Of a DNA stretch of 64,000 bases, positions 32,638 to 57,400 are shown piece after piece (the first letter of the stretch is position 1; each line of letters opens with the position of its first letter). The stretch is from Botryllus schlosseri (taxonomy: Eukaryota). The translations under genes were made by a program, and so were the position numbers. The notes below the pieces were generated by a model. That model did not search any database. It saw only the letters and a program-made list of their open reading frames with translations, and had not been told where the DNA came from. Location of the stretch: contig CM119371.1 of the NCBI GenBank assembly GCA_051294905.1, forward strand, positions 18,478,001-18,542,000, read 5' to 3'.

Positions 32638-33034
32638 TTCTATCTAGCAGCTTATCTTCTAAGTTATCATCGAAAAATGGTTATGTATATCACGTGAGAT
32701 TTTGTAAACATTTCGAAGTCACCGTGATTGACCTTACTCATCAACTTTTCCCCCACAATCACCAACAAAACAGCTCTCAACAGCAAAGTGTTTGTATCAG
32801 TAGGCTAATGGCAATTTACCAATCAAAATGAGTGTGAACAGTAGGGTATTCTATCTCAGACGGCCATTCTGTTGATGTGAGCTCTGGAGTTTTACTAGTA
32901 ATGAAGCAAAACTGTCTTATGATTTTCCTAATTAAAAAAAATAGAAATTAGGTTATCAACTATTTGAGGTTTCGCGGAGTAGTAAGGGAAAGCAATTTAT
33001 ACGCCGGCCAATCCCAGAAGGCCACGTCGCCTTA

Positions 33035-33280
33035 ATTGCCACACCTACATTGCCACATCATCCGCCCATTGCCGCACCTATGGGACGCCTATTGCCACAT
33101 CATCCACCCATTGCCGCACCTATAGCACGCCCATTGCCGCACCTATAGCACACCTATTGCCACATCATCCGCCCATTGGCACATCACCTGCCACATTCAT
33201 CTGTGTCACATCATCAAGCGCCACACCTATAGTGCCACATCATCCATTGCCACATCATCACCGCATTGATTGCCGCATCT
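33035..33280 (+). repeat. Subterminal ATTGCC(A/G)CA-based minisatellite of the foldback (mirror ~56247-56492)
   Basis: Repeated ATTGCCACATCATCC / ATTGCCGCACCTATAG units. Confidence 0.85.
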
Positions 33281-35362
33281 TGATACTTTTCTCAGATATT
33301 GTATTATGTGTATTTAGGACTAATATCATCCGTCCATATTTTTTAAACTTGATTTTATGTGTACAAGTTACGGTTTCTGCAGTTTCCACATTTTACGACT
33401 TATGATTGCTGCGTCAAAACTTACCTTGGCTAGAATCGACAGATTTTCTATTATGTGTATTTAGGACTATGTATTTAAATTCCTATTCAGATTATACATA
33501 AATGCGAAAACTATGATGTCTATGTAAGGTTATATTCTCCGGATAATATTATTAATATCAAAATTCTATACATCATCACTATAATTACTTAATATAAAAT
33601 GCGATTTTGAGCGCTGCGACTTGATAATATGAACCCCTACGCTTCTGATGCAGATTTTTTGTGATAAGGACCTAGGTAACATTCAGAGTCTGCAACGATT
33701 GTTTGGATATACATTATAGCAATACCCCACTAAACTATAGGCGGTTATATTACTCTATTGGTCAGAGATAACTCATCCGTCTATATTTTTAAACTTGATT
33801 TTATGTATACAAGTTACTGTCTCTGCAGCCTCCACATTTTACGACTTATTTTCATTAGACGCAGGCAAGCGATTCTCCAGTTCGGAGCTACGGAAACAAA
33901 TCACTCGCATGTGCGCGTTCCGAATAGTCTTGTAGAATAACAGCTTAGTAGCATATACGCGAATCCCAAGGTGAAAATAATCGAACGAACTATAGCCGTA
34001 GGCGTGCGATTCGCAGGGCTTTATTTATACAAACTCTATCGATGCCTGTACGCGAACCCCAGCGTTAAAACGATTAGGTCTAATTAACACGTTCTGAAGC
34101 CGAAAATTTAGTCAACATCATTGAGATAGCCATGATTTGAAGATGGTGATCGAGTGTGACAATAGCACTCGCCAAGGTTAGACAAACATAACCTTAAACT
34201 ACTCTCTACTTCACAAAATATAAAGTTATAAAAGTAAGCAGATTTCTATGAAAACCCGTGAAATAGAAGTAAAAGTAGCCTAGAAACATAACTACTTAAT
34301 GAAAAATCGTGATTCTTGAAGTGACCACATTTCATACGATTCAGTCCTTTTCATGTCACTAGAATAAGGTGATTAAACTGACAGTGAAACGCCGCCGGCG
34401 TCTTATAACGTAATAATGTAAGCTGCGTCGGGTGCTGCTATAATGTTAGGAGCGAATATAGTAGAAAGTTCACGTCTGGACACCTGTAAGCAGGTGCGCA
34501 TACTACCGTAGTAAAACGCATAACAGAATTCACGCAAAAGTCGATATTGCTTTGTGATGCTTTTGATGTTGTTCCATACCGATTGGGAAGATAGGACTCC
34601 TAATTTCCTAACTAACTACATAATCCCTAGTAACGTAGTCAGACGCATAACGGAATTTACGCAAAATCGGTATTGCTCTGCGATAATTTTGACCACTATG
34701 TTTTGATAATAACTTGCTTCCGAGAAATAAATAACATTCATTATACGTTAGATGATACTTTTCCTTGATATTCTATTATGTGTATTTAGGGCTAATGCGA
34801 CATCACTATATTGCCGACAGGCCTGATTCGAACACACTAATTTTGCGAATTAAACTTTTATCGCGGAACGCAACAAGATAAATCATATGAATTTGTAAAC
34901 TACTTATTCATGACATAGTAATAATTCTACTTGTGTACTTTTTCATATTTTGCAGCAATTTTAGTAGTACTTAAATAAAATTCGGAATATAAACTAATCG
35001 AAAAATTCGGTAACCAATTTCGCATAGGCTATCCCTAGACTGCTCAGGTGGAATATCGTTACACGATCGCTCTGGTGGGGTCGATTAGACCCCATCAGTT
35101 AATATGCTTTTTGTCTTACCAATTTCGCTATACAGCTGTCTAATAACTTCTTGCATGACGTTATAACGATTCATATTCCCTTTTTGAACCCTACTGTCTA
35201 CCCATTTAAAAAGTCCCGCTCTGGCTAAACACCAACACGCAAATGGCGATATGGGGTCAAACACCCCCCACCAATTAATTTTATTAACGAAGAAATAACA
35301 AAAAGACAATACAAGACAATACAGCAATACAACAGAGTAACAACGACAACAACAAAGTAGAT

Positions 35363-38300
35363 TCAATCCGAATCCTCCAGCTCCATGCACTCTTGACATG
35401 TCACTATTTTCACAGAGTGTGCTTGGCAGACAAATTCCCCACATTTTCCACATTTCTCGGTTGTTTTCCGGTCTTGTGCTCTACCGCAAAGACAGCATCT
35501 GCCACGTGCAGCTTTGGAGAGCTTTGCTGGTGGCATTTTACTGTCTTCTCCCGGAAAAATTCTTCTAGACGCGAGTCTTGTTCGGACGCGCAAGTGAGTA
35601 TTTGATTGCCTGGACACTGCATTTTTCTTTGTTAGGGCCAGTGCAATTTCCACTATAAATCCTCTGTGTGTTTGTTTCTTCGCGCGGTTACCTTCAGCTA
35701 GCAAAGATAATAGCCGTTGCATGCAGACAAGTTCATCAATCCAAAGAAGATTGTCAGAGGCCAGCGCTTACTATTGCGAGAACAGGAATAGTTTGCCACC
35801 ATTCTGTCTGCCACGTCGACGCCACCTTTTGTTTGATTATAAAATGTTATTATATCTGATTTCCGAGCGTCACCAGAGCTTACAGCAATTTTATCATCGT
35901 GATGCTGGCTGCTGTGGAACGCCCTGCGCCCTCTCACGGTTCATACACTTTGTAAGATACAACATCATTATGGTACATCGCCTATATCTGTATATCACGT
36001 GACTTATATCTTTCTTCTCGCAACCACGTGACTTACCATTTATCAGCTCGTGCATTTCAATTACAAACTAGACTCATATGCGACATCCTACTGTATATTC
36101 CATACATATTCGACCAATATATCTATCTGAGGCAATACTGTCGTTGCATTCACGTTGGAGTTGTCAGATCAAGGACTAACACAGGGACGTGCGTCTACTA
36201 CGATAAGAGCTAAGTATATCTACCCAGCCACATATTACGTGGGACTCAGGTTACAACTCTAGCAGGTTATCAGACGCCATATCTGGTCTGCATGGTGCAC
36301 ACTCGTGAGATGATTTCAGCTTCAACGAAGGACGAATCGCCTCCTACACAATTTGACTTACAACTGCTATATGGAGCCATCCAGGACTTTTCCACCCTTA
36401 CACGGTAAATCCGTTTATTTGACTTCGAATTTCGGGAATGCATTTTGCAGTGAGAATGATTTATCTCACTTGGCTTTATCGGCTAGCAGCAAATTTCATC
36501 GTTATTGCTCGATTCGTACTTTCTATATAATTATATTACTTGTTCGTGTTCCTATATTCAATGCCATGCCATTCAGAGAACCAGATTTGAGTGATACTCT
36601 GACACTGACAGAACATTGTTCATTGGTTTCGTTTTTATATTACGGCCTTGAAGTCTGTTATTTTAATCTCAGCGTTTTCCTTTCTAACGACATTATCACA
36701 TACATTATGCGTCGGGAATTTCACTCTCGGCCACCTGATAAAATCGCTTCTCTACCCCGTGAAATCGAATATTAACCACCGATCCACTATTCAATATTTT
36801 CATATAGAACTTCACTTTCGCACAATTAGCCTACCTAACTCGTTTACCAAACCATTTGCTTACAATTGTTTAATTGTTCAACAACTCCATTTCGATTTTA
36901 TTATAAATTTTGCGGTTTTCGTACTTTCATATTACCGCGTAAATCACTGCCAATCACCGTCGTAATTTACCAATCTATTTTTGTTCGTTTTTTTTAATTC
37001 ACGGCATCTCCGTGGTACATAACTACCAATTCCATGATTTAATTTCGGAATACTTCTTTAAACCTAATTCATACATTACTTTTTTTTACGGTTTCAACTT
37101 CCACCTATTCATTCGTATAGCGATTTTATGTGTAATTCATGCGACATTTATTTTTGTGCGTATTTAAGCGCTGCCTTTTTAACTACCGTAACTATTCCGT
37201 CAATGTGAATTCGATAACAATAGTGAGTAGTGACGCGGCCTTTCGCCCGACTATAGCATAACATTCCACCGGGGTTTAATATGATAATTCTGCGGCAAAA
37301 TCACCTCTTTTTAACCGAGAGTTTCTTTCTCGGCTATGAACTATTAAGATATACCAGTAGCACTGGGAATTGGGATTTCATAATTAATTTTTTTTCTAAC
37401 TTCAATTCACCTTATCTAATTGCGCGTATTCGCATAGCCTCGCTTTTGCTACAATTTCTCATAATGGTTATTTGATTTTAATCACATATTTGCATTACTT
37501 AAAACTCAGCCTTATGCTGGAATTTGTGGATACGGAATTAATTTCCCATTTTTTAAAAAAAACATTGACTTATTTACTTTCTTTATACTAGGTCTTTTAC
37601 ATGATCGCTTACTTCTAATTACCCATACTTAAATAAGGCCTCTTTAACACGGTGACAAATTGTCATTTTTCTTCGTAATTTACGTCTTTACATACTTACC
37701 CGCGATAATGTCATCTTAACATACTCAGATTTTACAACCTAGTTACATGCGATTAACGATACATTTATTTTACCCGCAATGCCATTTGGACGCAATATTA
37801 TCTAAACATCCCGTGATATATTTTGGCCACGGACATTTCCCATTCATATATGCTACTCCGACCTAGGAAATCAAGAGTGGTTTCGGTGGTGTTGCGATCC
37901 AAGGCACGATTTCGACCCGGGGGTATCCGAGTCTTCTCAAAGCGTCGGCCACGGGATTGCATATCTGGTCCCGCTTTACCGCCTTGATCAAGCGGTGGGG
38001 CGGAGTCAGTGTTGTAATTAGACTCGTGGTCTCCAGCGCTCAGACTCGCGATATTACGAAATCTGATGCTGACGTTCGCACCGCAATCTGAGTCATTTCT
38101 TCGATCTACTAGGAAGTCCGTACTTACAAAAGCGTTACAGTCACTGTATATTATATATATACTTTTAATGTGAAGCACGATTCTTACTTACGCAATTGTG
38201 CATTAACTGTCGCGACGTGTTTAACGGCACACGTCAATTTATTTCCGGAAACCTTTTTATATCTGGAGAGCATATGGCGCGCAGATCCAGCGACATGTCT

Positions 38301-41300
38301 GGATTTGTGGTATGCCATGCGGTGTACATATCGCTAGGGACTTTTCTGGACATGACTGCGTGTTCGCAGCACTAAATTCGTACATGCCATTAGGCTACCT
38401 AACAATACAAACATTTTTCATTACTTCGGCTATTGTTATTACATTCTCTTTATAATTTTTACACTATACTTTCACGACTTACTTTGTCATATAATTAAAT
38501 GACGAATTCCCCGCGTTACGCTACGATTACATTCATCTTGACATGCTTTGATGCGAATATTCCATTTCTAGATACTTTTGATCTGATTAATACACCCGGA
38601 TAACCCGGCATAATTTCCATTCACTTCGAGATTACGTAAATTTTTATTAATTTCTACTTGAAAGCTCAAATTACTCACAAGGCTTATATAACCGCCTTGC
38701 GCCCGTCACATATGGAATCGATTCAATACTTAGTACTTACGCCTACATTATAGCGTAGGCCTACTCGGCTCATTTCACCCCTATCGGTGCAGATTTTCAC
38801 CACTTCATATCTGGTTCGCTGACAAATAATGTGTCTATTGTGTTTAATTTCTTTTTCAATTTGTCATTAGGCTATCTATACTATTATTGCTATTATTAAT
38901 ATTTTCCTACTTTGTGAATTAGCCTGTTTGCTGCCGATATTGCATTGCATTCTAGAATTCGTCGTCGTCTGCCAACGGGTCTACCGCGAACTGCCGAAAT
39001 GCTCACTACTACACGACATTCCTCCGCTCTCCGATTCCGCCGCCTATGTCAACATTTCGGGACATACCAGTTCAACATTACTTTGGTAACACCACGTATT
39101 TATACGCATTTGTAAGTCGACTTCGATAGTCGTGAAGAATATTCGCAGAACAGGCGATACGCGTTTTAACCTTGGCGGAGTGAACTAATTGGATCTAAAT
39201 ACAATCATTATTGAGCAATGAGCATTGACTGTTAATTAATCCAGGCAGGTTCGCGACCCACGGTGCACGGTTTAACTGTATATAAATAATTATTCGGTCT
39301 TCCTAAAGACTGATGGACATTTGACATTTCCATCGCGATGAATTTCCTAATCCTTGAAATATTAGCATTCATGAACTTTTTCTATTATATTATATTAATT
39401 TTCGTCAATCGCACGTGGAAACCACGCTTCTCTTGCATGGCCGGTTATCGCGGGAACAATCCCGTAACCCGGATACCCAAAGTGGATTTTGATTGACAGA
39501 CATTTCCCGCAACCTCTTCCGAGATACTGATTTGTTTTGCCTACATTTTGAGAGATACTTGCTACTTGGTTTGTATAATTTTCCCCTATTGCGGCAGACT
39601 TAACGCCGCCGCCCGTACCGTCTAATGTGATAATCGGTCTTCCCCGCTGTCGTGGGATTTTCGGCGGCTAACAATAACACATATCTACCCCATTTCCCAC
39701 ACTAATGACCTATTCGTCATGCCGTATTCCGCGGCTCCTTTGTTTGTCATATATCGAACCGATTGTCGGCCATTTTGTATTCAATTGTCGACCCTTTTTT
39801 TCGTGTTTTTTTTCCTTTTTCATTTTAATACAGCTTTCATAAAATTGCCCTTTACAAGCCGTTCTGGTATCTTGAACCGCGCGTTTCGACTACAGGACGC
39901 CGTTTGAATAATTTTCTATTCAACTCCATTGACTCATAAAAGCAGTCTCTGGTCGCTATAGAAAACCCAGACATCAGTTTCCTACTTCCGTTACTTCCTA
40001 TCTTCTAATACCACGTGTTTCGATTAATTTGAAAAGTAGTTTTGACTTTAATATGCTCCCAAACCATACACTGGATTCCGCTTATATGATTTTGCCTTTA
40101 CAAATAACATACACTCGTTTTAGAGCTACCACCAATTCGTTCTAGCGTATGACGCATTCGCCAGACCTAATGTCAATTCCTTTGTGTACATATTTTTTTT
40201 TCTTCTTTCGTTCTTTTAATAAAACACAAAAATTGCCTCAGATAACCAATTCGCCATTTTGACTATATTAAATCTTACCCTTAACGTGTTATCGTCACGC
40301 TATCTCATACGGTTGCATCGCAATCATGTTTTATAAATATTCCAACATCAGGCTACAATATCGCATTTTAAATTGACGTTGTTATCACCCTTCTACCAAC
40401 ACTTTATTAACTACACACTTCGGCCTTACCTCGTTAAACCACATGCTATGTGTTATATGTTGAAATTATTTCGTTTCGTAATCTTACTGCTATTCAATGC
40501 ATGTAAATTTCATTTTCTATTGTCGCTAATCACGCCTTTTTAGCAGAGGCGATGTGGAACGCCCTGCGCCCTCTCACGGTTCATACACTTTGTAAGATAC
40601 AACATCATTATGGTACATCGCCTATATCTGTATATCACGTGACTTATATCTTTCTTCTCGCAACCACGTGACTTACCATTTATCAGCTCGTGCATTTCAA
40701 TTACAAACTAGACTCATATGCGACATCCTACTGTATATTCCATACATATTCGACCAATATATCTATCTGAGGCAATACTGTCGTTGCATTCACGTTGGAG
40801 TTGTCAGATCAAGGACTAACACAGGGACGTGCGTCTACTACGATAAGAGCTAAGTATATCTACCCAGCCACATATTACGTGGGACTCAGGTTACAACTCT
40901 AGCAGGTTATCAGACGCCATATCTGGTCTGCACTGCTCACCATGTTAAGAATTTTCTTTGAGCCTTTGCCCGTTGGAAGATATGACAGCAGTGTCATATC
41001 TTTTTGAAATCCAAAAATGCTGCTGTACACCTCCCTCCCCCGCAGAGAAATAAACGCAGGAGGTATCTCTCTCTTGTTCTTTCGAAGGGTGCCAACTGCT
41101 GTCAATTTATGGTCATGAAGCAATGACGTCACCAATGGTATACTGGTGTACCAGTTATCGAATGTGATGTTTCGGCCAGATCCTGATATATCAGACACCA
41201 GCCGTGTCACTACTTCTTTGGCAGAGTTGTCGACGTTGTACGGCCCGTCCAGTTGCGTCCCGCAATAAATTTCAAAATTATGGGTGCAGTAAGTCTTTGC

Positions 41301-42111
41301 ATCACACAAGGCATGTAGTTTGATGCCATATTTTGCCGGTTTGTTTCGAATATACTGTCGGAAAGAACAACGTCCTCGAAACCCCCAAAGCATTTCATCA
41401 ATTGTCACAAATTCAGACAACACGTAATTTTTCTTGAAGGTGTTCAATATCATATCCGATATTGTTCGAATTTTCGCCAATTTGTCATTTTTTTCTATCT
41501 TCGCGTGTGGTAATGTCATCAAACCGAAGACATCGCAAAATGAATCGGAATCTTTCGCATGACATTGTTACCTTGAAGATATCAAGTCCTGTGCCGTCAT
41601 CTGCCCAATACTCATCAAGTGACAATCTTGAGCTTCTATGAACCCCAGCTAGAAGAAGAAGACCAATGACAGCTTCCATCTCCGCCGAATTAGTTGGCCC
41701 GACCCTGTACTTCTCTTTGTAGTTTTGGGCTTCTTCAGGTATCTTCTTGTTTGTAAATTCAACAAGTAAATCTATCACTTGTGGTGTAAAGAAGAGCTTC
41801 CAATAATCAATGTAGTTATCAGCTTCTAGGGCAGGCCCAGTGAGACCCGGTGAAAATTTTATCATATTCGCTGCACTTCTTCGACTAGCAGTCGGAGCAG
41901 TCTTTCTCCAAAACGTGGTACCGTCTTTTCCTAACCAACCACTGCCAGCTTCACCTTCTTCGGGATTTTCTTGATCATCTTGCTCTTCGTCTGAAGAGCT
42001 CTCAGAAATTGCAGGGTCCGGAATATACTCTTCTTCGTCTCCTTCACTACCGGACGATATAGTAAGTTCGGTAAGTTCAGCTAACACCTCTTCTCCCGTC
42101 AACCAGCGCAT
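35363..42111 (-). pseudogene. piggyBac transposase, two frameshifts plus an LTR-element insertion
   Basis: Pieces 42111-41485, 41522-40933, 35912-35698 and 35722-35363 carry TIDEML..FRGRCSFRQYIRNKPAKYGIK, ITFDNWYTS, FYNQTKGGVD (DDD triad), KRWP and a C-terminal Cys-rich domain. Removing 35913-40936 restores ..NMVSSQHHDD.. in frame. Confidence 0.93.
35913..40932 (+). mobile_element. Non-coding (LARD-like) LTR retroelement, 5020 bp
   Basis: 380-bp LTRs TGTGGAAC...TCTGCA at 35913-36292 and 40553-40932 with no difference seen; TSD CTGC at 35909-35912 and 40933-40936; PBS-like TGGTGCACACTCGTGAG at 36293; PPT-like AGCAGAGGCGA before 40553; no gag/pol ORF. Confidence 0.93.
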
Positions 42112-43296
42112 TATTTCCACACTCAATCCAGATATAACTGACTTCCTCTGACCAACAAAGAGGTCTGGAAGCATGCCGTCATGCCTCGTTGACTGCACGT
42201 GACAGAAACAATGCCAAGCAGCAACAAAAAGTCGAAATCCATCCGACTACAATGATGAGATAATTACTTAGTTTGCCCACTGTATCTGCAAAATCAGACC
42301 CATGCGCAATCAATAGCTCATTGCGCCGAGGTATTAGCGATAATCAGCTAATGCTTTATTCCGAATGATAGTGTATAACACCATTGAGGATTACATGTCT
42401 GGCAAGAACAATCCGACCGCACATAAAAATATGGCTCACATTTTTGTTCGCCTGGGGTCGTTTAGACCCCAACCTGAGCAGTCTAGGGCTATGCATACAA
42501 ATGAGGAAAGTTACATCAACGCGTGTTAACTAATTGAATTATGTAGCTTGTAATTCATGCAAGTTGCGAAACTTCTACACTGAAACCTTTAAAGTAGATA
42601 GAATCGAAAAAACTAATCGAAAATATTCACGAAGTTTGGATGCGACATATTTGGGTTTTTTAAAATCATTCATACCCATGATTCGAAATACTTTAACTAA
42701 CTTATGTTTTCGACATAAGATAAGCGTGAAATGTACAAATTTCTATGTTGCGCAAATACCACAAACTTTGCTTGCTTTCAGAGCCGGCAACTAAATGCAA
42801 GACAGAATTTACGCAAAAGTTGCTATTCTGAAAATTTTGTCAAGGTAATAGTTTAAAAACTTACACTTGAGCACTACGAAATGTTCAAGTACTTTATCTT
42901 TACACGACGTTTTTTGTAAAATGAATACTAATATTATTGAAAAAATAAAAAATAAAAAGAGCGAAAAATTACATTTTATCCCGGAACGCAACAAGAAAAA
43001 TCGTATGAATTTGTAAACTACTTATTCATGACATAATATTAATTCTACTTGTACACTTTTTCACACTTTATAACACTTTAAGTAGTACTTAACAGTTTCA
43101 GTTTTAAATAAAATACGGAATATAAACTAATCGAAAAATTCGGTTACCAATTTCGCGTAGGCTATGCATACAAATGAGGAAAGTTACATCAACGCGTGTT
43201 AACTAGTTGTATCGAGTTATCGAATGATTTTTTCTTTACATCAAAATAACTAGAGTGTGTAGCTACATTAAAAACGTATCTAAATGAGCTCCAGGT

Positions 43297-44445
43297 CATT
43301 GTGATTATGCAGCATACCAAATTTCATCACATATTTCATGATGGAACAACTTTAAAACTAACGCAGTTCTATAGCAACTTTTGCCTAAATCTGTTTTCGG
43401 TAGCATGTACATATCCATAGTCAGCTTTAATAACAGAATTACCATGCTAATATGTGACTCCTCACCTTGAAACTTGGTACGTAGTTGTAGGACATTGTGA
43501 TTATGCAGCATACCAAATTTCTTCACACATTTCATAATGGAACAACTTTAAAACTAACGCGGCTCTACATCGACTTTTTGCGTACATCTGTTTGCGGGAG
43601 CGTATAGCACGTACCTATACATAGTCAACTTTAATAACGGAATTACCATGCTTAACATTGAATCCCAACTCTAAACTTGATTCGTAGTTGTAGGACATTG
43701 TGACAATGCACCATGCTAAATTTCATCGCGCATCTAATGATGGATCACCTTTAAAATTAACGCAGTCGAATACCGACTTTTAAGCATATCTGTTTTGCGT
43801 GAACATAGCATATACCTATGCATAGTCAATTTTAATAGCAGAATTACCGTGTTAAACATTGAATTCCCACCTTGAAAGTTGGTACGGGATTATAGGACAC
43901 TATAACAATGCACCATACCAAATCCCATCACACATTTCATGATGGAACAACTTTAAAACTAACGCGGCTCTACATCGACTTTTTGCGTATATCTGTTTTG
44001 CGGGGGCGTATAGCACGTACTCATACATAGCTAACTTTAATAACGGAATTACCATGCTTAACATTGAATCCCAACTCTAAACTTGATACGTAGTTGTAGG
44101 ACATTATGGCAATGAACCATGCTAAATTTCATCACACATCTAATGATGGAACACCTTTGAAACTATCGCAGTCGAATACCGACTTTTACACAAATCTGTT
44201 TTTCGTGAACATAGCATATACCCATACATAGTCAATTTTAATAACAGAATTAGCATGCTAAACCTTAAATTCTCACCTTGAACGTTGGTACCCAGTTGTA
44301 GGACATAATAACAATGCACCATACCAAATTTCGTCAGGCATTTCATGATGTAACACTTTCAAAAACCAACGCAGTTCTATACAGGCTTTTGGCTAAATCT
44401 GTGTTTCCGTAGCGTAGCACGTACCTATACATAGTCAACTTTAAT
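43297..44445 (+). repeat. ~200-bp tandem array, ~5.7 copies (mirror 52541-53689)
   Basis: Units start near 43297, 43493, 43696, 43898, 44102 and 44304. Confidence 0.88.
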
Positions 44446-47400
44446 ATCAATACATGTTTATCGTAAGTCCTACACAGTCATGATATCCGGCCGAGTTTGA
44501 CTTTTAGAAAACATTATACCGACAACGCGACATCTTACAAAATTGAAACCACGGTGACTGCTTGAGAGACCTACCAGTGATATCGCGGTAATCTAGTTAC
44601 TTCCACAAAATAGTATGTATTCAACTTACTTTCCACAAATCTAACGCGCAAAACAATTTACTTTGCTAACGAAAAGTGCTGAATCATCATATCATTATCC
44701 ACGCAACAATACACCTAAAACATACTATCGTACAAAATGGTCGCTAACCTCTTTGTGCACCAGCTGTAAATCTCACAAGCAACAAGTTTCAAGATTCCAG
44801 TTATTGAAAAAATGTTAAAGTGTTTCTCCTGCGCCAAGTCGTTATGTTGACGAAAGCGTATATTGTAATATCATGATCGATTTGCATTCGTTGGTCACAA
44901 ACTGTCACTACTCTAAATAATTATTTTTCACTCAAACACAACAGCATACTTGTCGCCATTCGTTTTCATCAAGCACGAGTTCAATAAACTTACTTACTAC
45001 GACATGAATTGGTATTTTTATGTTGTGTAAATAGGTAATAATTAATTTTAGTAACACTATACCAACATCATCGAGTTGTGCGAATAGATTTACATGTGGT
45101 GTTATGGTTTTAATCGAAGTACACTGCACGATCTAATGTAGAGTCATCTCTATTGTATAGCAACTCGGTAATCGAAATGCATGCATTAACATTTAAACAG
45201 CGATCGTGTTTCGTCACGCGAAAAATATGTTCACTACTGCGATACTCCGCACAGGGCATGCAAATCCTTTTCACACTCGTAATAGTATACCAACGGTTAC
45301 CGGCGACAACGTTTAACAATACCAACGACACTAAACATACGATACCTACCCAATCTGCAAATTGTTTCGATTTATTCTGTCCGTTTCAATTTAAGATAAG
45401 GAAGCCCATTTCACTCAATGTATCGATGCCTACGGTACTCTACAAAATTTTCTGATTAATTCTCCCTATGCTTATTTATCACAAGAAAGATGATTTGACA
45501 CCTAAAGTACGAAATACTTTTTCGCTTGAGCTAAGTCGCAGCGCCTGGAGTGGAATTGTACGGGGTATGTGGACTCATTTCGTAGGGCTCTATGCCATAG
45601 GAGCATACTTTACGCTCCAATTCGATTCCCACACATTCCATATAATTACTAACAGAACCATTGAGTACCAGCCTTGACATTTTCCGTAGTACTAGATGGC
45701 ATGTATACAATTTCACGACATCCGACATTACGACGAAGACTATCAAAATATCGAAAAGAAGCCCTCTATTCTTTTCTGAAATAATCAAGGTTTTATCAGG
45801 ACTTCCCTTCATCTAAACTCCAGCAGAATCACTAATAACCTCTCAAGTGTACTCAATTTACTCTAATTTGATACTCGTGTACCAAATCCCTATTTTCCGC
45901 AAGTATGATAGAGGCTATCGCTCGATACTCAACGATTCGTAATTTTGCTGGAATACAAGTACAATTAGTTTAAAGTAGTTTGAGGTTACGTTTGTATCAC
46001 CTTGACAAGTGCTATTATCAAAAAATACTTTTGCTAAACTCTTACACTTTCACTAAACTTCTACACTGAATTTTGGAAAGTAGATAGAAAAGGAAAACTA
46101 TTAACATAAGCTAAGTGAGAAGCACGCAAATTTCGATTGCATACAAATGCCACAAACTGCGCTAACTTCCAGAGTTGTTAAGTATAGAAGTACTGGTACG
46201 TCTTGAGAATACCCAAGTAGGTTTTTTGCCTACATGTACCAAATACTCTCAAGTCCTTATGATATTGGATTTACATGCCCAAGTTGGGGATTCTCGTTAC
46301 ATTGTCTTCTTGTGTGTTGATGATTAAATACATTGCGACGCTGTCACTTGGCTCTTAATTGGATTGTTTCATCTGAAAGAACTAATTTTGTCTGTTATAA
46401 TACTTTATTAGACTTGTATGGCGAGGCGTCTGGTATCGAGAAGTAAGATCGCAAGCAATCATTGAGTCAGTCGTGATGTCTGATTGGGAGTGTCGGCCTC
46501 TTATATCCAGCAAGTGTAATGAGCCATATTAGGCCATAAGTATCGTAGGCCCCGCGTGAAGTGTACAAATTTCGATGTTGCGCAAATACCACAAACTTTG
46601 CTTGCTTTCAGAGCCGGCAACTAAATGCAAGACAGACTTTACGCAAAAGTTGCTATTCTGAAAATTTTGTCAAGGTAATGGTTTGAAAACTTATACTTGA
46701 GCACTCGTACTTCTTGAGAATACCCAAGTAGGTTTTTTGCCTAGATGCACCACATAGTCTCAAGTCCTTATGATATTGGAGTACATCAACTTCATGATAG
46801 CTAGAGTATTAAACAGTAATATACTTAGAGTACTAATGTTTTACTTACTCGGAAATGACTACTTCTACCTTATTTTAAAGGATACCTCATTCGAAGCGAA
46901 ATTGTATGTGGTTTTGGATAACATCCAAGATGTAGGCTCACTTTGAAGGTTACTTCGTAAAACTCAAATATTGCGCAGTGAGAGTTCGCAAATTCTCGAA
47001 GTATTTTTGTTATTTTTATTGCGATAAGTCATTCTGCAGCGCGAAAATGCGTCGTAGGATATAGATGAAACTAGCACCACTCATCAAGACCGCTGAAAAC
47101 AGTACGTTTCAACATTTAGTAGCAGTAAATTTCTAGTAAAGTACAAGACGTGATGATTTCCGAGTGAGTTAAAAGTATTGCAGGTATAGTTTACCTGAAA
47201 ACCGAATACTCTGAAATAGAAGTAGATGCAGTGTAAATAGTTAATCACTTGATTAAGTTTAGCGCAAGCAGATAAAACCTATACTTGAGTAGTACAAAAT
47301 GCACGAGTACTTCGCTATCGCCTCCCTGCACGTAATAAGTGCTTTTACCGATACTCGTCGGTTTCAGTTTTAGATAGAATTCAGAAACCAAATAATTTCA

Positions 47401-48149
47401 TAAACCTAAGCTAATTTAATGAATTTACTCGAATGTACTATGCCGCGCTGATAAGATTAATTATAATATACTTATCATGTTACAGCGATTTTTCTAGCGT
47501 AGAAAATCTTTAAAATGTAGTAAGCAGGCCAAATGAAGATATTCGTTGAGTTGAATAAACATAAAAAATACTCTAGACCACTTTATCGGTACTTTACAGT
47601 TTCAGTTTTAGATAAAATTTGTCCCTTTCACCTATAATTACAACTCCTCGCTATCTAAACATGTTTAGAATATATTATTTGCGATGATACGAACCCGTGA
47701 AGTACTCGAGTAGCTTTTCGTAGGATATAGATGAAACTGACAACACTCACCAAGACCGCTGGTCCACTGAAAAAAGTACATTGTAGCAGTAAAGTCCTAC
47801 TAAAGTACAAGAAGTAATGATTTCCCAGTTAGTTGAAAAGTAAGTATTGAAGGTATAGTTTGCTGGAAAAAGCGAAAAACTCTGAAATCGAAGTAGATGC
47901 AGTGTAAATAGGTAATCACTTCATTAAGTATAGCGCAAGCAGGCCAAACCTATACTTGAGTACTGCAAAATGTACAAGTACTTCGCTATGTTCTCCCTCC
48001 ACGTAAAAAGTGACTAGGTTTTAGACTACTTTATCGGTACTCGACAGTTTCAGTTTAGATAAAATTTGGTAAGACTTTAAATTTTAAAGTAGTTTGAGCT
48101 TACGTTTGTATCACCTTGACAAGTAACATTATCAGACATGAAAATGATA

Positions 48150-48440
48150 GGGACGTGTTCGGACATCATGTCCAGGGTGTGTTCGGCCTGTGCTGCCATT
48201 CGGACATGGTGTCTTGGTCGTGTTCGGACATCATGTCAGGTGCGTGTTTGGACATCCTGTCTGGGGTGTGTTCGCCCTGTGCTGCCAATCGGACATCGTG
48301 TCTGGGGCGTGTTCGGCCATTCAAACATGGTGTCTGGGTTGTGTTCCGACTGAGTTGACACTCGGATATCGTGTCTGGGGTGTGTTCGCCCTGTGCTGCC
48401 AATCGGACATCGTGTCTGGGGCGTGTTCGGCCATTCAAAC
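48150..48440 (+). repeat. GC-rich CGGACATCGTGTCTGGGG.GTGTTCG minisatellite next to the hairpin apex (mirror 48546-48836)
   Basis: Repeated ~20-40-bp units; the same unit occurs at 59710-60310. Confidence 0.85.
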
Positions 48441-51400
48441 AGAGTTGAATAACCATAAAAAAGATTCCCGCGCCCTCCTAAACCCAACTATTCCTATCCC
48501 CTACAACCTAGGGCGCGGGAATCTTTTTTATGGTTATTCAACTCTGTTTGAATGGCCGAACACGCCCCAGACACGATGTCCGATTGGCAGCACAGGGCGA
48601 ACACACCCCAGACACGATATCCGAGTGTCAACTCAGTCGGAACACAACCCAGACACCATGTTTGAATGGCCGAACACGCCCCAGACACGATGTCCGATTG
48701 GCAGCACAGGGCGAACACACCCCAGACAGGATGTCCAAACACGCACCTGACATGATGTCCGAACACGACCAAGACACCATGTCCGAATGGCAGCACAGGC
48801 CGAACACACCCTGGACATGATGTCCGAACACGTCCCTATCATTTTCATGTCTGATAATGTTACTTGTCAAGGTGATACAAACGTAAGCTCAAACTACTTT
48901 AAAATTTAAAGTCTTACCAAATTTTATCTAAACTGAAACTGTCGAGTACCGATAAAGTAGTCTAAAACCTAGTCACTTTTTACGTGGAGGGAGAACATAG
49001 CGAAGTACTTGTACATTTTGCAGTACTCAGGTATAGGTTTGGCCTGCTTGCGCTATACTTAATGAAGTGATTACCTATTTACACTGCATCTACTTCGATT
49101 TCAGAGTTTTTCGCTTTTTCCAGCAAACTATACCTTCAATACTTACTTTTCAACTAACTGGGAAATCATTACTTCTTGTACTTTAGTAGGACTTTACTGC
49201 TACAATGTACTTTTTTCAGTGGACCAGCGGTCTTGGTGAGTGTTGTCAGTTTCATCTATATCCTACGAAAAGCTGCTCGAGTACTTCACGGGTTCGTATC
49301 ATCGCAAATAATATATTCTAAACATGTTTAGATAGCGAGGAGTTGTAATTATAGGTGAAAGGGACAAATTTTATCTAAAACTGAAACTGTAAAGTACCGA
49401 TAAAGTGGTCTAGAGTATTTTTTATGTTTATTCAACTCAACGAATATCTTCATTTGGCCTGCTTACTACATTTTAAAGATTTTCTACGCTAGAAAAATCG
49501 CTGTAACATGATAAGTATATTATAATTAATCTTATCAGCGCGGCATAGTACATTCGAGTAAATTCATTAAATTAGCTTAGGTTTATGAAATTATTTGGTT
49601 TCTGAATTCTATCTAAAACTGAAACCGACGAGTATCGGTAAAAGCACTTATTACGTGCAGGGAGGCGATAGCGAAGTACTCGTGCATTTTGTACTACTCA
49701 AGTATAGGTTTTATCTGCTTGCGCTAAACTTAATCAAGTGATTAACTATTTACACTGCATCTACTTCTATTTCAGAGTATTCGGTTTTCAGGTAAACTAT
49801 ACCTGCAATACTTTTAACTCACTCGGAAATCATCACGTCTTGTACTTTACTAGAAATTTACTGCTACTAAATGTTGAAACGTACTGTTTTCAGCGGTCTT
49901 GATGAGTGGTGCTAGTTTCATCTATATCCTACGACGCATTTTCGCGCTGCAGAATGACTTATCGCAATAAAAATAACAAAAATACTTCGAGAATTTGCGA
50001 ACTCTCACTGCGCAATATTTGAGTTTTACGAAGTAACCTTCAAAGTGAGCCTACATCTTGGATGTTATCCAAAACCACATACAATTTCGCTTCGAATGAG
50101 GTATCCTTTAAAATAAGGTAGAAGTAGTCATTTCCGAGTAAGTAAAACATTAGTACTCTAAGTATATTACTGTTTAATACTCTAGCTATCATGAAGTTGA
50201 TGTACTCCAATATCATAAGGACTTGAGACTATGTGGTGCATCTAGGCAAAAAACCTACTTGGGTATTCTCAAGAAGTACGAGTGCTCAAGTATAAGTTTT
50301 CAAACCATTACCTTGACAAAATTTTCAGAATAGCAACTTTTGCGTAAAGTCTGTCTTGCATTTAGTTGCCGGCTCTGAAAGCAAGCAAAGTTTGTGGTAT
50401 TTGCACAACATCGAAATTTGTACACTTCACGCGGGGCCTACGATACTTATGGCCTAATATGGCTCATTACACTTGCTGGATATAAGAGGCCGACACTCCC
50501 AATCAGACATCACGACTGACTCAATGATTGCTTGCGATCTTACTTCTCGATACCAGACGCCTCGCCATACAAGTCTAATAAAGTATTATAACAGACAAAA
50601 TTAGTTCTTTCAGATGAAACAATCCAATTAAGAGCCAAGTGACAGCGTCGCAATGTATTTAATCATCAACACACAAGAAGACAATGTAACGAGAATCCCC
50701 AACTTGGGCATGTAAATCCAATATCATAAGGACTTGAGAGTATTTGGTACATGTAGGCAAAAAACCTACTTGGGTATTCTCAAGACGTACCAGTACTTCT
50801 ATACTTAACAACTCTGGAAGTTAGCGCAGTTTGTGGCATTTGTATGCAATCGAAATTTGCGTGCTTCTCACTTAGCTTATGTTAATAGTTTTCCTTTTCT
50901 ATCTACTTTCCAAAATTCAGTGTAGAAGTTTAGTGAAAGTGTAAGAGTTTAGCAAAAGTATTTTTTGATAATAGCACTTGTCACGGTGATACAAACGTAA
51001 CCTCAAACTACTTTAAACTAATTGTACTTGTATTCCAGCAAAATTACGAATCGTTGAGTATCGAGCGATAGCCTCTATCATACTTGCGGAAAATAGGGAT
51101 TTGGTACACGAGTATCAAATTAGAGTAAATTGAGTACACTTGAGAGGTTATTAGTGATTCTGCTGGAGTTTAGATGAAGGGAAGTCCTGATAAAACCTTG
51201 ATTATTTCAGAAAAGAATAGAGGGCTTCTTTTCGATATTTTGATAGTCTTCGTCGTAATGTCGGATGTCGTGAAATTGTATACATGCCATCTAGTACTAC
51301 GGAAAATGTCAAGGCTGGTACTCAATGGTTCTGTTAGTAATTATATGGAATGTGTGGGAATCGAATTGGAGCGTAAAGTATGCTCCTATGGCATAGAGCC

Positions 51401-54400
51401 CTACGAAATGAGTCCACATACCCCGTACAATTCCACTCCAGGCGCTGCGACTTAGCTCAAGCGAAAAAGTATTTCGTACTTTAGGTGTCAAATCATCTTT
51501 CTTGTGATAAATAAGCATAGGGAGAATTAATCAGAAAATTTTGTAGAGTACCGTAGGCATCGATACATTGAGTGAAATGGGCTTCCTTATCTTAAATTGA
51601 AACGGACAGAATAAATCGAAACAATTTGCAGATTGGGTAGGTATCGTATGTTTAGTGTCGTTGGTATTGTTAAACGTTGTCGCCGGTAACCGTTGGTATA
51701 CTATTACGAGTGTGAAAAGGATTTGCATGCCCTGTGCGGAGTATCGCAGTAGTGAACATATTTTTCGCGTGACGAAACACGATCGCTGTTTAAATGTTAA
51801 TGCATGCATTTCGATTACCGAGTTGCTATACAATAGAGATGACTCTACATTAGATCGTGCAGTGTACTTCGATTAAAACCATAACACCACATGTAAATCT
51901 ATTCGCACAACTCGATGATGTTGGTATAGTGTTACTAAAATTAATTATTACCTATTTACACAACATAAAAATACCAATTCATGTCGTAGTAAGTAAGTTT
52001 ATTGAACTCGTGCTTGATGAAAACGAATGGCGACAAGTATGCTGTTGTGTTTGAGTGAAAAATAATTATTTAGAGTAGTGACAGTTTGTGACCAACGAAT
52101 GCAAATCGATCATGATATTACAATATACGCTTTCGTCAACATAACGACTTGGCGCAGGAGAAACACTTTAACATTTTTTCAATAACTGGAATCTTGAAAC
52201 TTGTTGCTTGTGAGATTTACAGCTGGTGCACAAAGAGGTTAGCGACCATTTTGTACGATAGTATGTTTTAGGTGTATTGTTGCGTGGATAATGATATGAT
52301 GATTCAGCACTTTTCGTTAGCAAAGTAAATTGTTTTGCGCGTTAGATTTGTGGAAAGTAAGTTGAATACATACTATTTTGTGGAAGTAACTAGATTACCG
52401 CGATATCACTGGTAGGTCTCTCAAGCAGTCACCGTGGTTTCAATTTTGTAAGATGTCGCGTTGTCGGTATAATGTTTTCTAAAAGTCAAACTCGGCCGGA
52501 TATCATGACTGTGTAGGACTTACGATAAACATGTATTGATATTAAAGTTGACTATGTATAGGTACGTGCTACGCTACGGAAACACAGATTTAGCCAAAAG
52601 CCTGTATAGAACTGCGTTGGTTTTTGAAAGTGTTACATCATGAAATGCCTGACGAAATTTGGTATGGTGCATTGTTATTATGTCCTACAACTGGGTACCA
52701 ACGTTCAAGGTGAGAATTTAAGGTTTAGCATGCTAATTCTGTTATTAAAATTGACTATGTATGGGTATATGCTATGTTCACGAAAAACAGATTTGTGTAA
52801 AAGTCGGTATTCGACTGCGATAGTTTCAAAGGTGTTCCATCATTAGATGTGTGATGAAATTTAGCATGGTTCATTGCCATAATGTCCTACAACTACGTAT
52901 CAAGTTTAGAGTTGGGATTCAATGTTAAGCATGGTAATTCCGTTATTAAAGTTAGCTATGTATGAGTACGTGCTATACGCCCCCGCAAAACAGATATACG
53001 CAAAAAGTCGATGTAGAGCCGCGTTAGTTTTAAAGTTGTTCCATCATGAAATGTGTGATGGGATTTGGTATGGTGCATTGTTATAGTGTCCTATAATCCC
53101 GTACCAACTTTCAAGGTGGGAATTCAATGTTTAACACGGTAATTCTGCTATTAAAATTGACTATGCATAGGTATATGCTATGTTCACGCAAAACAGATAT
53201 GCTTAAAAGTCGGTATTCGACTGCGTTAATTTTAAAGGTGATCCATCATTAGATGCGCGATGAAATTTAGCATGGTGCATTGTCACAATGTCCTACAACT
53301 ACGAATCAAGTTTAGAGTTGGGATTCAATGTTAAGCATGGTAATTCCGTTATTAAAGTTGACTATGTATAGGTACGTGCTATACGCTCCCGCAAACAGAT
53401 GTACGCAAAAAGTCGATGTAGAGCCGCGTTAGTTTTAAAGTTGTTCCATTATGAAATGTGTGAAGAAATTTGGTATGCTGCATAATCACAATGTCCTACA
53501 ACTACGTACCAAGTTTCAAGGTGAGGAGTCACATATTAGCATGGTAATTCTGTTATTAAAGCTGACTATGGATATGTACATGCTACCGAAAACAGATTTA
53601 GGCAAAAGTTGCTATAGAACTGCGTTAGTTTTAAAGTTGTTCCATCATGAAATATGTGATGAAATTTGGTATGCTGCATAATCACAATGACCTGGAGCTC
53701 ATTTAGATACGTTTTTAATGTAGTTACACACTCTAGTTATTTTGATGTAAAGAAAAAATCATTCGATAACTCGATACAACTAGTTAACACGCGTTGATGT
53801 AACTTTCCTCATTTGTATGCATAGCCTACGCGAAATTGGTAACCGAATTTTTCGATTAGTTTATATTCCGTATTTTATTTAAAACTGAAACTGTTAAGTA
53901 CTACTTAAAGTGTTATAAAGTGTGAAAAAGTGTACAAGTAGAATTAATATTATGTCATGAATAAGTAGTTTACAAATTCATACGATTTTTCTTGTTGCGT
54001 TCCGGGATAAAATGTAATTTTTCGCTCTTTTTATTTTTTATTTTTTCAATAATATTAGTATTCATTTTACAAAAAACGTCGTGTAAAGATAAAGTACTTG
54101 AACATTTCGTAGTGCTCAAGTGTAAGTTTTTAAACTATTACCTTGACAAAATTTTCAGAATAGCAACTTTTGCGTAAATTCTGTCTTGCATTTAGTTGCC
54201 GGCTCTGAAAGCAAGCAAAGTTTGTGGTATTTGCGCAACATAGAAATTTGTACATTTCACGCTTATCTTATGTCGAAAACATAAGTTAGTTAAAGTATTT
54301 CGAATCATGGGTATGAATGATTTTAAAAAACCCAAATATGTCGCATCCAAACTTCGTGAATATTTTCGATTAGTTTTTTCGATTCTATCTACTTTAAAGG

Positions 54401-57400
54401 ATTCAGTGTAGAAGTTTCGCAACTTGCATGAATTACAAGCTACATAATTCAATTAGTTAACACGCGTTGATGTAACTTTCCTCATTTGTATGCATAGCCT
54501 ATGCGAAATTGGTTACCGAATTTTTCGATTAGTTTATATTCCGAATTTTATTTAAGTACTACTAAAATTGCTGCAAAATATGAAAAAGTACACAAGTAGA
54601 ATTATTACTATATCATGAATAAGTAGTTTACAAATTCATATGATTTATCTTGTTGCGTTCCGCGATAAAAGTTTAATTCGCAAAATTAGTGTGTTCGAAT
54701 CAGGCCTGTCGGCAATATAGTGATGTCGCATTAGCCCTAAATACACATAATAGAATATCAAGGAAAAGTATCATCTAACGTATAATGAATGTTATTTATT
54801 TCTCGGAAGCAAGTTATTATCAAAACATAGTGGTCAAAATTATCGCAGAGCAATACCGATTTTGCGTAAATTCCGTTATGCGTCTGACTACGTTACTAGG
54901 GATTATGTAGTTAGTTAGGAAATTAGGAGTCCTATCTTCCCAATCGGTATGGAACAACATCAAAAGCATCACAAAGCAATATCGACTTTTGCGTGAATTC
55001 TGTTATGCGTTTTACTACGGTAGTATGCGCACCTGCTTACAGGTGTCCAGACGTGAACTTTCTACTATATTCGCTCCTAACATTATAGCAGCACCCGACG
55101 CAGCTTACATTATTACGTTATAAGACGCCGGCGGCGTTTCACAGTCAGTTTAATCACCTTATTCTAGTGACATGAAAAGGACTGAATCGTATGAAATGTG
55201 GTCACTTCAAGAATCACGATTTTTCACTAAGTAGTTATGTTTCTAGGCTACTTTTACTTCTATTTCACGGGTTTTCATAGAAATCTGCTTACTTTTATAA
55301 CTTTATATTTTGTGAAGTAGAGAGTAGTTTAAGGTTATGTTTGTCTAACCTTGGCGAGTGCTATTGTCACACTCGATCACCATCTTCAAATCATGGCTAT
55401 CTCAATGATGTTGACTAAATTTTCGGCTTCAGAACGTGTTAATTAGACCTAATCGTTTTAACGCTGGGGTTCGTGTACAGGCATCGATAGAGTTTGTATA
55501 AATAAAGCCCTGCGAATCGCACGCCTACGGCTATAGTTCGTTCGATTATTTTCACCTTGGGATTCGCGTATATGCTACTAAGCTGTTATTCTACAGGACT
55601 ATTCGGAACGCGCACATGCGAGTGATTTGTTTCCGTATAGCTCCGAACTGGAGAATCGCTTGCCTGCGTCTAATGAAAATAAGTCGTAAAATGTGGAGGC
55701 TGCGGAGACAGTAACTTGTATACATAAAATCAAGTTTAAAAATATAGACGGATGAGTTATCTCTGACCAATAGAGTAATATAACCGCCTATAGTTTAGTG
55801 GGGTATTGCTATAATGTATATCCAAACAATCGTTGCAGACTCTGAATGTTACCTAGGTCCTTATCACAAAAAATCATGCATCAGAAGCGTAGGGGTTCAT
55901 ATTATCAAGTCGCAGCGCTCAAAATCGCATTTTATATCAAGTAATTAGTGATGATGTATAGAATTTTGATATTAATAATATTATCCGGAGAATATAACCT
56001 TACATAGACATTATAGTTTTCGCATTTATGTATAATCTGAATAGGAATTTAAATACATAGTCCTAAATACACATAATAGAAAATCTGTCGATTCTAGCCA
56101 AGGTAAGTTTTGACGCAGCAATCATAAGTCGTAAAATGTGGAAACTGCAGAAACCGTAACTTGTACACATAAAATCAAGTTTAAAAAATATGGACGGATG
56201 ATATTAGTCCTAAATACACATAATACAATATCTGAGAAAAGTATCAAGATGCGGCAATCAATGCGGTGATGATGTGGCAATGGATGATGTGGCACTATAG
56301 GTGTGGCGCTTGATGATGTGACACAGATGAATGTGGCAGGTGATGTGCCAATGGGCGGATGATGTGGCAATAGGTGTGCTATAGGTGCGGCAATGGGCGT
56401 GCTATAGGTGTGGCAATGGGTGGATGATGTGGCAATAGGCGTCCCATAGGTGCGGCAATGGGCGGATGATGTGGCAATGTAGGTGTGGCAATTAAGGCGA
56501 CGTGGCCTTCTGGGATTGGCCGGCGTATAAATTGCTTTCCCTTACTACTTCGCGGACCCCCTGGAAATGCTTCGCGGACCCCTGGGGGTCCGCGGACCCC
56601 CGGTTGAGAACCGCTGCGAATAGGGTCTGCTGTCGTGAAGTTTTCAACAGAAATCGACAATTAAAACGTGTACCGTGTTCGTCCGTGAAGAATGTCCTTG
56701 TCGTCGATAGCAAAAACGTCAGTCCCAGTATTGAAGTTGTATATCTAACGACTGTTCTCGGGGCCCATGCAGCAATTAGAGCTTATGGTCTCTGATGATC
56801 TGTATAGAAGTACAGCTAACCAATCGTCTTGGTGCTCGGCTATACAATACTTATCTCGAGAAGCTGTTGCCTTGGGTGAAGTTCTTCGTAACAGATATAT
56901 GCTCAATACAATGGTCTATTCGACGTTGATGCAGTAGTAGCGTATAGAGTCTCAATCATAATAATCATCTAAAACACTTGTTACAGGCACTTATGTACTA
57001 GTCTGGACTCTCGAGTAATCTCAAAAAGAAGTAGTTTCTTATTCGAGACATAGCAAAATATCATGGACGAGTGATCACAGCGGAATAGCTGCAGTATCAG
57101 CAAATAGCGGATAGCCGAAGGAGGGCCTGGGAGCGAAGCCCCCCGGAAGTCTGGCTTATCACCCGATGGGGGGCCCAAGACCAACGTTTTTTTTGGTGGC
57201 GGCTGACGAAGTGCTGTTACGGCCCTGGTAACGAATTAGTTTTACCTACGGGAACGCCCGAATATGTTTAATTAATAAATACGAGCCTTTTATTTACCCA
57301 TAAAACAGCTCACTCAGCGCTACTGGTAAATCATATTACATGGGCTGAGGGGATAAAAAGTTTATAGCGACTTACCTATGTAATTACTACCTATTCATTC

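Follow-up and report, generated by a model that had tools for sequence, protein, structure and literature searches.

A whole-length palindrome inserted in a host MITE

The DNA analysed here, hereinafter the window, is a 64,000-nt stretch of the Botryllus schlosseri genome (GenBank assembly GCA_051294905.1, contig CM119371.1, positions 18,478,001 to 18,542,000 of the forward strand), and it holds at positions 32978-56549 an element that is a palindrome over its whole length and carries the end motif of Maverick/Polinton elements. Net of a piggyBac-like transposon lodged in its left arm, two inverted arms of 8,039 and 8,040 nt enclose a 33-nt loop, which gives this copy a net size of 16.1 kb. 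A repeat finder paired the inner arms, 42487-48476 and 48510-54499, as 5,990 nt of 100% complementary sequence spaced by 33 nt, and recovered the outer arms as three further segment pairs (32968-33581/55946-56559, 33653-33890/55638-55875 and 33889-35037/54489-55637) with 99-100% complementarity. The mismatches between the arms amount to 9 bases and 3 small indels, all of them at 33116-34914, thus within the outer 2.06 kb, whereas not one falls in the inner 5,990 nt. At the left junction ...gaggtt TCGCGG is followed by AGTAGTAAGGG (in a second rendering, ...gaggtt TCGCGG followed by AGTAGTAAGGGAAAGC), and at the right junction CCCTTACTACT (second rendering, GCTTTCCCTTACTACT) is followed by TCGCGG accccc. 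A preliminary description, made from the letters of the window, had already given two ~8,040-bp inverted arms around a 33-bp loop, AGTAGT...ACTACT ends with TCGCGG on either side, and a host element continuing across both flanks, all of which our analysis recovered; the piggyBac that it removed is also there, in the left arm, with slightly different boundaries (now 35033-42488) and arm lengths.

The host element is a MITE (miniature inverted-repeat transposable element) of ~870 bp, whose terminal inverted repeat (TIR), CAGTGGTTCTCAACC, lies at 32179-32193 (+) and 56602-56616 (-). Other copies of this MITE are 83-95% alike and can be aligned up to the insertion point. Since all three of the paralogous MITE copies that were fetched run uninterrupted through a single TCGCGG, the palindrome is an insertion with a clean empty site, and TCGCGG is its 6-bp target-site duplication (TSD). 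Just to the left of the host MITE, at 30623-32080 (-), there is a 485-aa open frame with weak matches only (DUF7041, E 0.0018).

The piggyBac-like insert is identified by transposase pieces matching PF13843 at 41488-42246 and 40902-41567 (E 7e-38 and 1e-18), with a C-terminal piece at 35701-35940; its flanks are CTAT, as against the usual TTAA. The right arm reads straight through the site that matches its insertion. The insert is itself split by a second one of 5,024 bp (35909-40932), and the joint of 35908 to 40933 that lacks this 5,024-bp sequence is seen in read contigs of three runs (X1, X4 and X7). All 12 arm differences lie outside the piggyBac, with none between it and the apex, a placement that by our arithmetic would arise with a chance of ~8e-8 if differences fell evenly. 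This hints, as a lead only, that the uninterrupted palindrome is still being homogenised within the chromosome. The related idea that the piggyBac is a barrier to arm-to-arm homogenisation likewise stays a lead, because another copy, at C1:24595025, has three inserts and shows only a weak gradient. Outside the element, the translation of window positions 59670-60315 is 37-53% like a frame that runs across the 41-nt tandem repeats adjoining the apex (Table 1), and it is probably a repeat array related to them.

A family of a few hundred palindromic copies

Searches of the element's own 495-Mb assembly, in which the best candidates were scored and counts are lower bounds, placed the window copy in a large family. 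The first 600 nt as query recovered many inverted end pairs, 6-22 kb apart, and the pattern GTAGT-N16-TACNCNNNCCAATC gave at least 70 forward and 76 reverse matches (control 0); rather than being single-copy, the termini are thus multi-copy. Among the matches listed, 35 clear end pairs could be drawn, with a median span of 15.7 kb and 14 of them within 14.5-17.5 kb; the C1:24595025 copy spans 25.7 kb, which comes down to ~16.0 kb when we subtract its three inserts. The 14-nt block between AGTAGT and the conserved TATACGC..CCAATC differs widely among copies, and the 35-mers at the two ends of one copy are identical in 31 of the 35 listed pairs and differ by one base in the other four.

Every one of ten other copies examined consists of two inverted arms (one of these judged by its centre). 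Where deletions or changes in repeat number set a copy apart from the window, they recur as mirror images in its two arms. Asymmetry is seen in two copies, namely C70, where one arm ends 969 nt short of the apex, and C12, with the arrangement [7853->670][4962->7853], and the C5 copy has a 100-N gap and a duplicated structure. Arm identity within a copy is 99.15-100%, and collinear segments between copies are mostly 89-99% identical. A 43-nt loop, related to the 33-nt loop of the window, is common to four other copies, between stems ending ...AAAAAACATTCCCGCGCGC, and the window loop itself recurs with one change and in opposite orientation in the C1:28022738 copy. The stem motif AAAAAASATTCCCGCGC has at least 232 forward and 229 reverse matches, mostly in close inverted pairs (control 0), which corresponds to ~230 conserved apexes in the genome. 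Because apex stem and loop are conserved across copies, the apex is not a random breakpoint: the palindromic architecture has been inherited through the diversification of the family, and the window element is one member of a family of a few hundred copies.

The other copies also fix the length of the TSD. Six end pairs have readable flanks, of which four show perfect 6-bp duplications (TCGCGG, TGCCTC, TGTGTG and CTCACC) and two imperfect ones (G/CCTATC, 5 of 6 bp; CACGTC/AAGGTC, 4 of 6 bp), in keeping with the 6-bp reading of the preliminary description and not with TSDs of 8-9 bp. The alternative it had allowed, GTAGT..ACTAC ends with an 8-bp TSD (TTCGCGGA), fits the window copy only and fails in the C9 and C4 copies.

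Words sampled from the apex region were found in sequencing runs of 12 studies under several organism labels. Runs of at least three labels (A, B and C) and a metagenome hold at least half of the sampled words, and those of a fourth label (D) and a seawater metagenome just under half; since several organism labels are involved, the family is not confined to one sample. No RNA run was among the listed runs holding these words. Searches of IMG/VR with the apex motif gave nine single, unpaired matches, which we took as chance and did not use; the terminal motif had no match in IMG/VR, and the apex motif none in metagenome contigs.

These results bear on the most prosaic account of the palindrome, namely that an assembler folded a long read back on itself or that a local stretch of chromosome was duplicated in inverted orientation. 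A chimeric read folded back on itself would produce the 100% identity seen in the inner 5,990 nt, and the gap and duplicated structure of the C5 copy point the same way. Set against this, only the left arm has the piggyBac and there are 12 differences between the outer arms, the ends are precise and come with a TSD and a verified empty site, all ten other copies share the architecture at different loci with TSDs of their own, there are ~230 apexes in the genome, and the sampled apex words recur across the 12 studies and several organism labels just described. We therefore regard this account as highly improbable for the window copy, and at the level of the family it is already contradicted.

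Genes of the relatives and candidate helpers

As the preliminary description had stated, the window copy is gene-less: for the 22 open reading frames (ORFs) of at least 60 aa in one arm there is no credible Pfam match, the best E being 0.012 and every match falling below cut-off, the same scan gave no rve integrase, capsid, protease, packaging ATPase or protein-primed DNA polymerase B (pPolB), and its arms hold no ORF of 140 aa or more. This does not extend to the family, since many relatives carry a Bcl-2-like ORF. In the C1:28022738 copy each arm has a 198-aa ORF of the Bcl-2 family (PF00452, E 1.7e-22), for which the nearest solved structures are those of Mcl-1 (E ~1e-11). A genome search with this protein gave 416 candidates, the best 150 of which are 72-100% identical to it, 109 of them without a stop; among the best 150 of 290 candidates in a PF00452 search, 149 have no stop in the domain, and by our count these 150 listed matches form 59 convergent +/- mirrored pairs and 32 singles. 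Copies of the ORF in the genome number in the hundreds, and most are intact. A subfamily with a shared TGA in the gene has also multiplied. The full ORF is present in only one of the ten other copies, that at C1:28022738, while C9 keeps an 81-residue remnant and the remaining eight fetched copies, C70 and C12 included, have no such gene, as is also the case for the window's subfamily. Because it is absent or decayed in many copies, the Bcl-2-like gene is not needed in cis; since many members have it conserved in both arms, the gene-less condition is a derived state. In a collection of 5.8 billion proteins the Bcl-2-like protein found one weak relative (33% identity, E 1.3e-4), and it found none in viral or metagenome contigs.

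The ten other copies contain 36 ORFs of at least 110 aa, most of which are chance frames in tandem repeats. We scanned 31 of them, leaving out three overlapping ORFs of one nested insert and two Bcl-2-like ORFs already scanned, and obtained no Pfam match except a reverse transcriptase in a nested insert. There is also another small mirrored frame, directed away from the apex, with ~91 aa after an internal Met and no Pfam match. Two subfamilies share it at 96-99% likeness and a third at 52% over 88 aa, and the family may have in it a second gene.

For possible sources of enzymes we turned to viral marker genes elsewhere in the assembly. The best Pox_A32 match (E 5e-5) is a 188-aa ORF with the Walker A motif GPSSCGKT and the Walker B motif LIILDD; the Atlas clusters closest to it consist of Pox_A32 proteins from eukaryotes and Preplasmiviricota, and a search of viral contigs gave no relative. 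Used as a query, it listed the best 150 of 235 genome candidates, mostly intact, in at least four classes by identity (96%; 65%, in frames of 274 aa; 64%, in frames of 205 aa; 44%, in frames of 215-217 aa), each with about 12 to 75 copies among the matches listed. Because it has so many intact A32-like ATPase ORFs, the genome is rich in Maverick/polinton-like elements.

The 205-aa class would connect these ATPases with the palindromes. At 11 loci it lies ~0.5 kb downstream, on the same strand, of an unpaired and more divergent Bcl-2-like gene; a Bcl-2-like gene followed by the ATPase is seen, for instance, at C1:15403518-15404985. By its coordinates it also falls once, unmirrored, within each of two elements bounded by the family's terminal signature, C5:15152226-15169257 (17.0 kb; 7.3 kb from one end) and C4:3469446-3487810 (18.4 kb; 8.6 kb from one end). 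The first 28 nt of the latter, hypervariable block included, equal those of the hairpin C4:3995449-4010598; in a search with the terminal 2 kb of that hairpin, it is not among the best 40 of 1,442 candidates. A third same-ended element, C4:11821007-11838753, has unlike blocks at its two ends and is treated with caution. In the hairpin C1:28022738 an inward-pointing Bcl-2-like gene is found ~6.0 kb from the terminus, and in the two non-mirrored elements the ATPase, also pointing inward, is 7.3-8.6 kb from theirs; these distances agree, as a comparison of coordinates and not of aligned sequences. We accordingly treat the C5 and C4 elements as candidate helpers or parents. The preliminary description had suggested looking for autonomous elements with the same ends; an A32-like ATPase can be placed in two same-ended elements by coordinates, while none of the listed search matches placed a pPolB or integrase in either.

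At three loci, ORFs whose similarity to PF03175 is weak (E 0.18-0.39) and whose length is 774-1,212 aa adjoin 44%-class ATPases, just upstream and on the same strand. The order polymerase-ATPase at these loci would be that described for Mavericks in PMC8097293, and the ORFs are candidates that fit a divergent polymerase. Separately, uninterrupted ORFs of 1,075, 1,455 and 1,147 aa (C5:11747469, C11:12224684 and C16:22340523) span the whole of the family-B polymerase domain PF00136 with E values of 4e-156 to 2e-82, while at another locus, on C12, the coding sequence is divided into exons; the three long ORFs could be intron-less host genes or viral. PF08706 had no match in the helper search, and the rve matches listed look like retroelements, which swamp the listing. 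Long ORFs with an OTU domain were tried as candidates for OTU-PolB, and the one fetched turned out to be the transposase of a Mutator-like element (MULE), a 1,055-aa frame with an N-terminal OTU protease domain at C4:26209000-26212500 (L063); this frame occurs in at least six further places, with several identical-scoring copies.

Table 1. Coordinates of the window element, of the sequences around it, and of genes in related or candidate elements (plain numbers are window positions)
Feature	Position	Strand	Remarks
Host MITE, left part	32179..32977	+	right part at 56550-56616
Left TSD copy, TCGCGG	32972..32977	.	junction read; single copy in 3/3 uninterrupted paralogous host MITEs
Left terminus AGTAGT, (AGT)2	32978..32983	+	same hexamer opens every terminus recovered in other copies
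14-nt subterminal block, AAGGGAAAGCAATT	32984..32997	+	hypervariable among copies, alike at both ends within a copy
Conserved subterminal motif, TATACGCCGGCCAATCCCAG	32998..33017	+	genome pattern search
Outer left arm, 2,055 nt	32978..35032	+	short tandem repeats at 33048-33260
piggyBac-like transposon, secondary, not part of the element	35033..42488	-	7.5 kb; TIR CCCTAGACTGCTCAGG; flanking 4-bp duplication CTAT
Inner left arm	42493..48476	+	100% complementary to 48510-54493
Tandem arrays of inner left arm	43293-44446; 48154-48432		203/406-nt units; 41-nt units adjoining the apex
Apex loop, 33 nt, CCTAAACCCAACTATTCCTATCCCCTACAACCT	48477..48509	.	flanking stem AAAAAAGATTCCCGCGC
Right arm, 8,040 nt	48510..56549	-	uninterrupted mirror of left arm; ACTACT end at 56544-56549
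Right TSD copy, TCGCGG	56550..56555	.	junction read; empty-site comparison
Bcl-2-like ORF	C1:28028771-28029337 and mirror	both arms	locus L053:1145-1738, 4284-4877
Second mirrored frame, possible gene	L036:5842-6288; L037:5510-5956; L046:6085-6531; L015/L030	-; +; -; 	
A32-like ATPase ORF	C11:4516074-4516613		locus L067; Pox_A32 search
Weak-PF03175 ORFs	C13:14452325; C3:9632060; C4:12067515		candidates for divergent protein-primed polymerase

Probable kinship with Mavericks and a possible snap-back origin

The preliminary description had taken AGTAGT ends together with a 6-bp TSD as a Maverick signature, and this agrees with what PMC8097293 gives for vertebrate Mavericks: 5'-(AGT)2//(ACT)2-3' as the commonest end motif, 6-bp TSDs in intact elements, a size of 16,862 +/- 1,678 bp and TIRs of 46-1,447 bp. 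The same survey ascribes the terminal repeats to jumping-back in protein-primed replication and reads the narrow size range as a capsid constraint. The window element shares the AGTAGT/ACTACT ends, the 6-bp TSD, the inverted ends and, at ~16 kb net, the size; Bcl2 and IAP homologues are listed among the accessory genes of adintoviruses in PMC8502044, and relatives of the window element carry the former too. It differs in that its inverted repeat runs over the whole length, 8 kb per arm, as against the TIR range in PMC8097293, and in that the unique coding centre of Mavericks is replaced in the hairpin family by a conserved 33-43-nt loop. Since the coding hallmarks of Mavericks (pPolB, integrase, capsid, protease and ATPase) are missing from the window element it is not a Maverick proper, and since its TSD has the wrong length it is not of the foldback (FB)/Galileo type either. 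In our literature search, elements that are palindromic over their whole length and have Maverick ends did not turn up, nor did a mirrored Bcl-2 gene in such elements; the only palindromes it brought to light were the 52-nt terminal ones of protist virophages.

A functional parallel lies in defective viral genomes (DVGs). Daniell reportedly saw, in 1976, long inverted duplications of the left genome end in some adenovirus defective molecules. Adenovirus light particles are described as containing left-end DNA (PMC5033970), and snap-back DVGs as highly symmetric, helper-dependent palindromes derived from one genome end (PMC13506859). The window element is alike in having 8,039/8,040-nt arms, a 33-nt centre and no replication genes of its own. 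Whereas snap-back DVGs form afresh in every infection, break at varied points and are not passed on to offspring, the hairpin family has one apex conserved across hundreds of diversified germ-line copies, many of them with an intact gene. The earlier proposal of a snap-back defective derivative thus holds as to a fold-back with Maverick ends, but not as to a sporadic by-product, since an inherited family with ~230 apexes is involved. The best reading is of an element that looks like a fold-back, has the ends of a Maverick and works like the snap-back defective genome of an adenovirus-like replicon.

Accordingly, we think it likely that the element belongs to a non-autonomous, whole-length palindromic snap-back lineage of a Maverick/Polinton-like element, which is heritable and mobilised in trans; the family probably spreads by borrowing the enzymes of gene-carrying relatives. 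We envisage an ancestral snap-back that duplicated, in inverted orientation, the end part of a gene-bearing element, a stretch reaching from its terminus to a point shortly beyond the Bcl-2-like gene. Its product would have comprised the terminus, the subterminal repeats and an accessory region with the Bcl-2-like gene, with two identical functional ends and a short loop, an architecture that would since have been inherited and diversified, the window's subfamily later losing the Bcl-2-like gene. A protein-primed polymerase, provided in trans, would use the (AGT)2 ends as its origins and jump back on the trinucleotide repeat. The displaced strand could then fold into a perfect hairpin in which arm mismatches are corrected, a stage that would keep the arms near-identical while copies diverge. 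A helper integrase would insert the unit-length (~16 kb) duplex by 6-bp staggered cuts, possibly after packaging by the A32-like ATPase and capsid of the helper; a limit on packaging would account for a total length that remains close to 16 kb despite differing internal layouts.

Several observations weigh against this proposal. Among the listed end pairs, 11 of 35 span less than 14.5 kb, so that any length constraint is loose. The helper link is a candidate one, drawn from coordinates and 28-35 nt of shared ends, and just five of the ~30 loci of the 205-aa ATPase class on C1-C10 lie near a terminus matching the strict pattern. Near the three Bcl-2+ATPase loci, on C1 and C3, that the listing of the apex stem motif covers, no match is listed, so that these loci give no parental sequence for the fold-back point. 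Neither PF03175 (at E <=0.001) nor PF00770 (adenain) matched anywhere in the genome, in searches whose controls were also silent and whose sensitivity is uncertain, and among the best 150 of 1,389 rve candidates none is listed in a candidate helper or any listed family element. As neither pPolB nor integrase was found in a same-ended partner by these searches, dependence on a Polinton is an inference. Finally, the read contigs are short and neither confirm nor deny the apex or flanks of the window copy.

The lack of a recognisable Maverick integrase or standard pPolB, within the limits of these searches, would suit a classical fold-back DNA transposon moved by a cut-and-paste DDE transposase, either a MULE or a member of a superfamily with 6-bp TSDs such as IS3EU or Dada, in which case the Maverick-like ends would be coincidental. 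The fold-back transposons Drosophila FB, Galileo and Tetris belong to the MULE or P superfamilies and have 7-9-bp TSDs and different termini. In form they are close to the window element, with long inverted arms that are internally repetitive, a unique centre that is small or missing, and arms whose length varies between copies (Galileo, PMC3573991; Tetris, PMC4079207). None of these transposons is reported with Maverick ends or a mirrored Bcl-2 gene. Internally repetitive arms with variable tandem arrays are indeed typical of this class, and the genome has several intact 1,055-aa MULE transposases with an OTU domain, no locus of which on C1-C10 has a listed terminal-pattern match within 20 kb. 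The TSDs are 6 bp as against 8-10 bp for MULE and FB elements and 7-8 bp for P and Galileo, and against the 7-10 bp that serve to recognise foldback/Galileo elements; sizes cluster near the length of a Maverick genome; and same-ended elements carry, by coordinates, a virus-type packaging ATPase. Together with termini that are exactly the (AGT)2//(ACT)2 motif given for Mavericks in PMC8097293, this makes a fold-back transposon unlikely in our judgement.

The conserved apex raises another alternative, a hairpin replicon, in which the transmissible form would be a ~8-kb duplex closed at one end by the loop and copied by a rolling-hairpin mechanism or telomere resolution, and the 16-kb palindrome its integrating, unfolded dimer. 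Poxvirus and African swine fever virus (ASFV) terminal repeats and concatemer junctions and parvovirus dimer junctions offer models, being palindromes on a short, two-orientation loop with tandem repeats nearby and diploid mirrored genes. In favour of it, some ~230 copies share a conserved apex stem and loop, which are met with in either orientation, tandem repeats adjoin the apex, and mirrored genes are diploid as in the terminal repeats of poxviruses. Those viral junctions are, however, replication intermediates of autonomous viruses, without outer AGTAGT ends or a TSD; no Rep/NS1, resolvase or telomerase-like ORF was found in any arm examined; loop orientation is uninformative in a symmetric element; descent from one snap-back event explains the conserved apex equally well; and the known signature of replication and integration sits at the outer ends. 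We consider a hairpin replicon quite improbable, and return to a snap-back lineage with Maverick ends as the preferred explanation.

Both protein-primed replication and the formation of virions are attributed to Mavericks/Polintons, but on scarce direct evidence. The family described here is a natural test, as it keeps only the ends and yet has hundreds of copies, holds its total length near that of one Maverick genome and keeps its arms near-identical while copies diverge; these features bear on three inferred steps, namely end recognition, a single-strand hairpin intermediate and packaging limits. The family also supplies long perfect palindromes in large number, a type of sequence known to endanger genome stability and to hamper assembly. 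The Bcl-2-like gene, conserved and mirrored, suggests that host-acting genes can be carried by passengers of endogenous viruses that are themselves non-autonomous. In a bolder version, which we put forward tentatively, the family would be a long-lived satellite lineage of an endogenous Maverick-like virus, its palindromes kept to roughly the length of one helper genome so as to fit the helper's capsid, their arms re-homogenised at each replication by way of a single-strand hairpin, and an anti-apoptotic Bcl-2-like gene, present in two mirrored copies, serving the satellite in many of them. If true, an inherited defective-interfering genome would here have turned into a germ-line transposon family.

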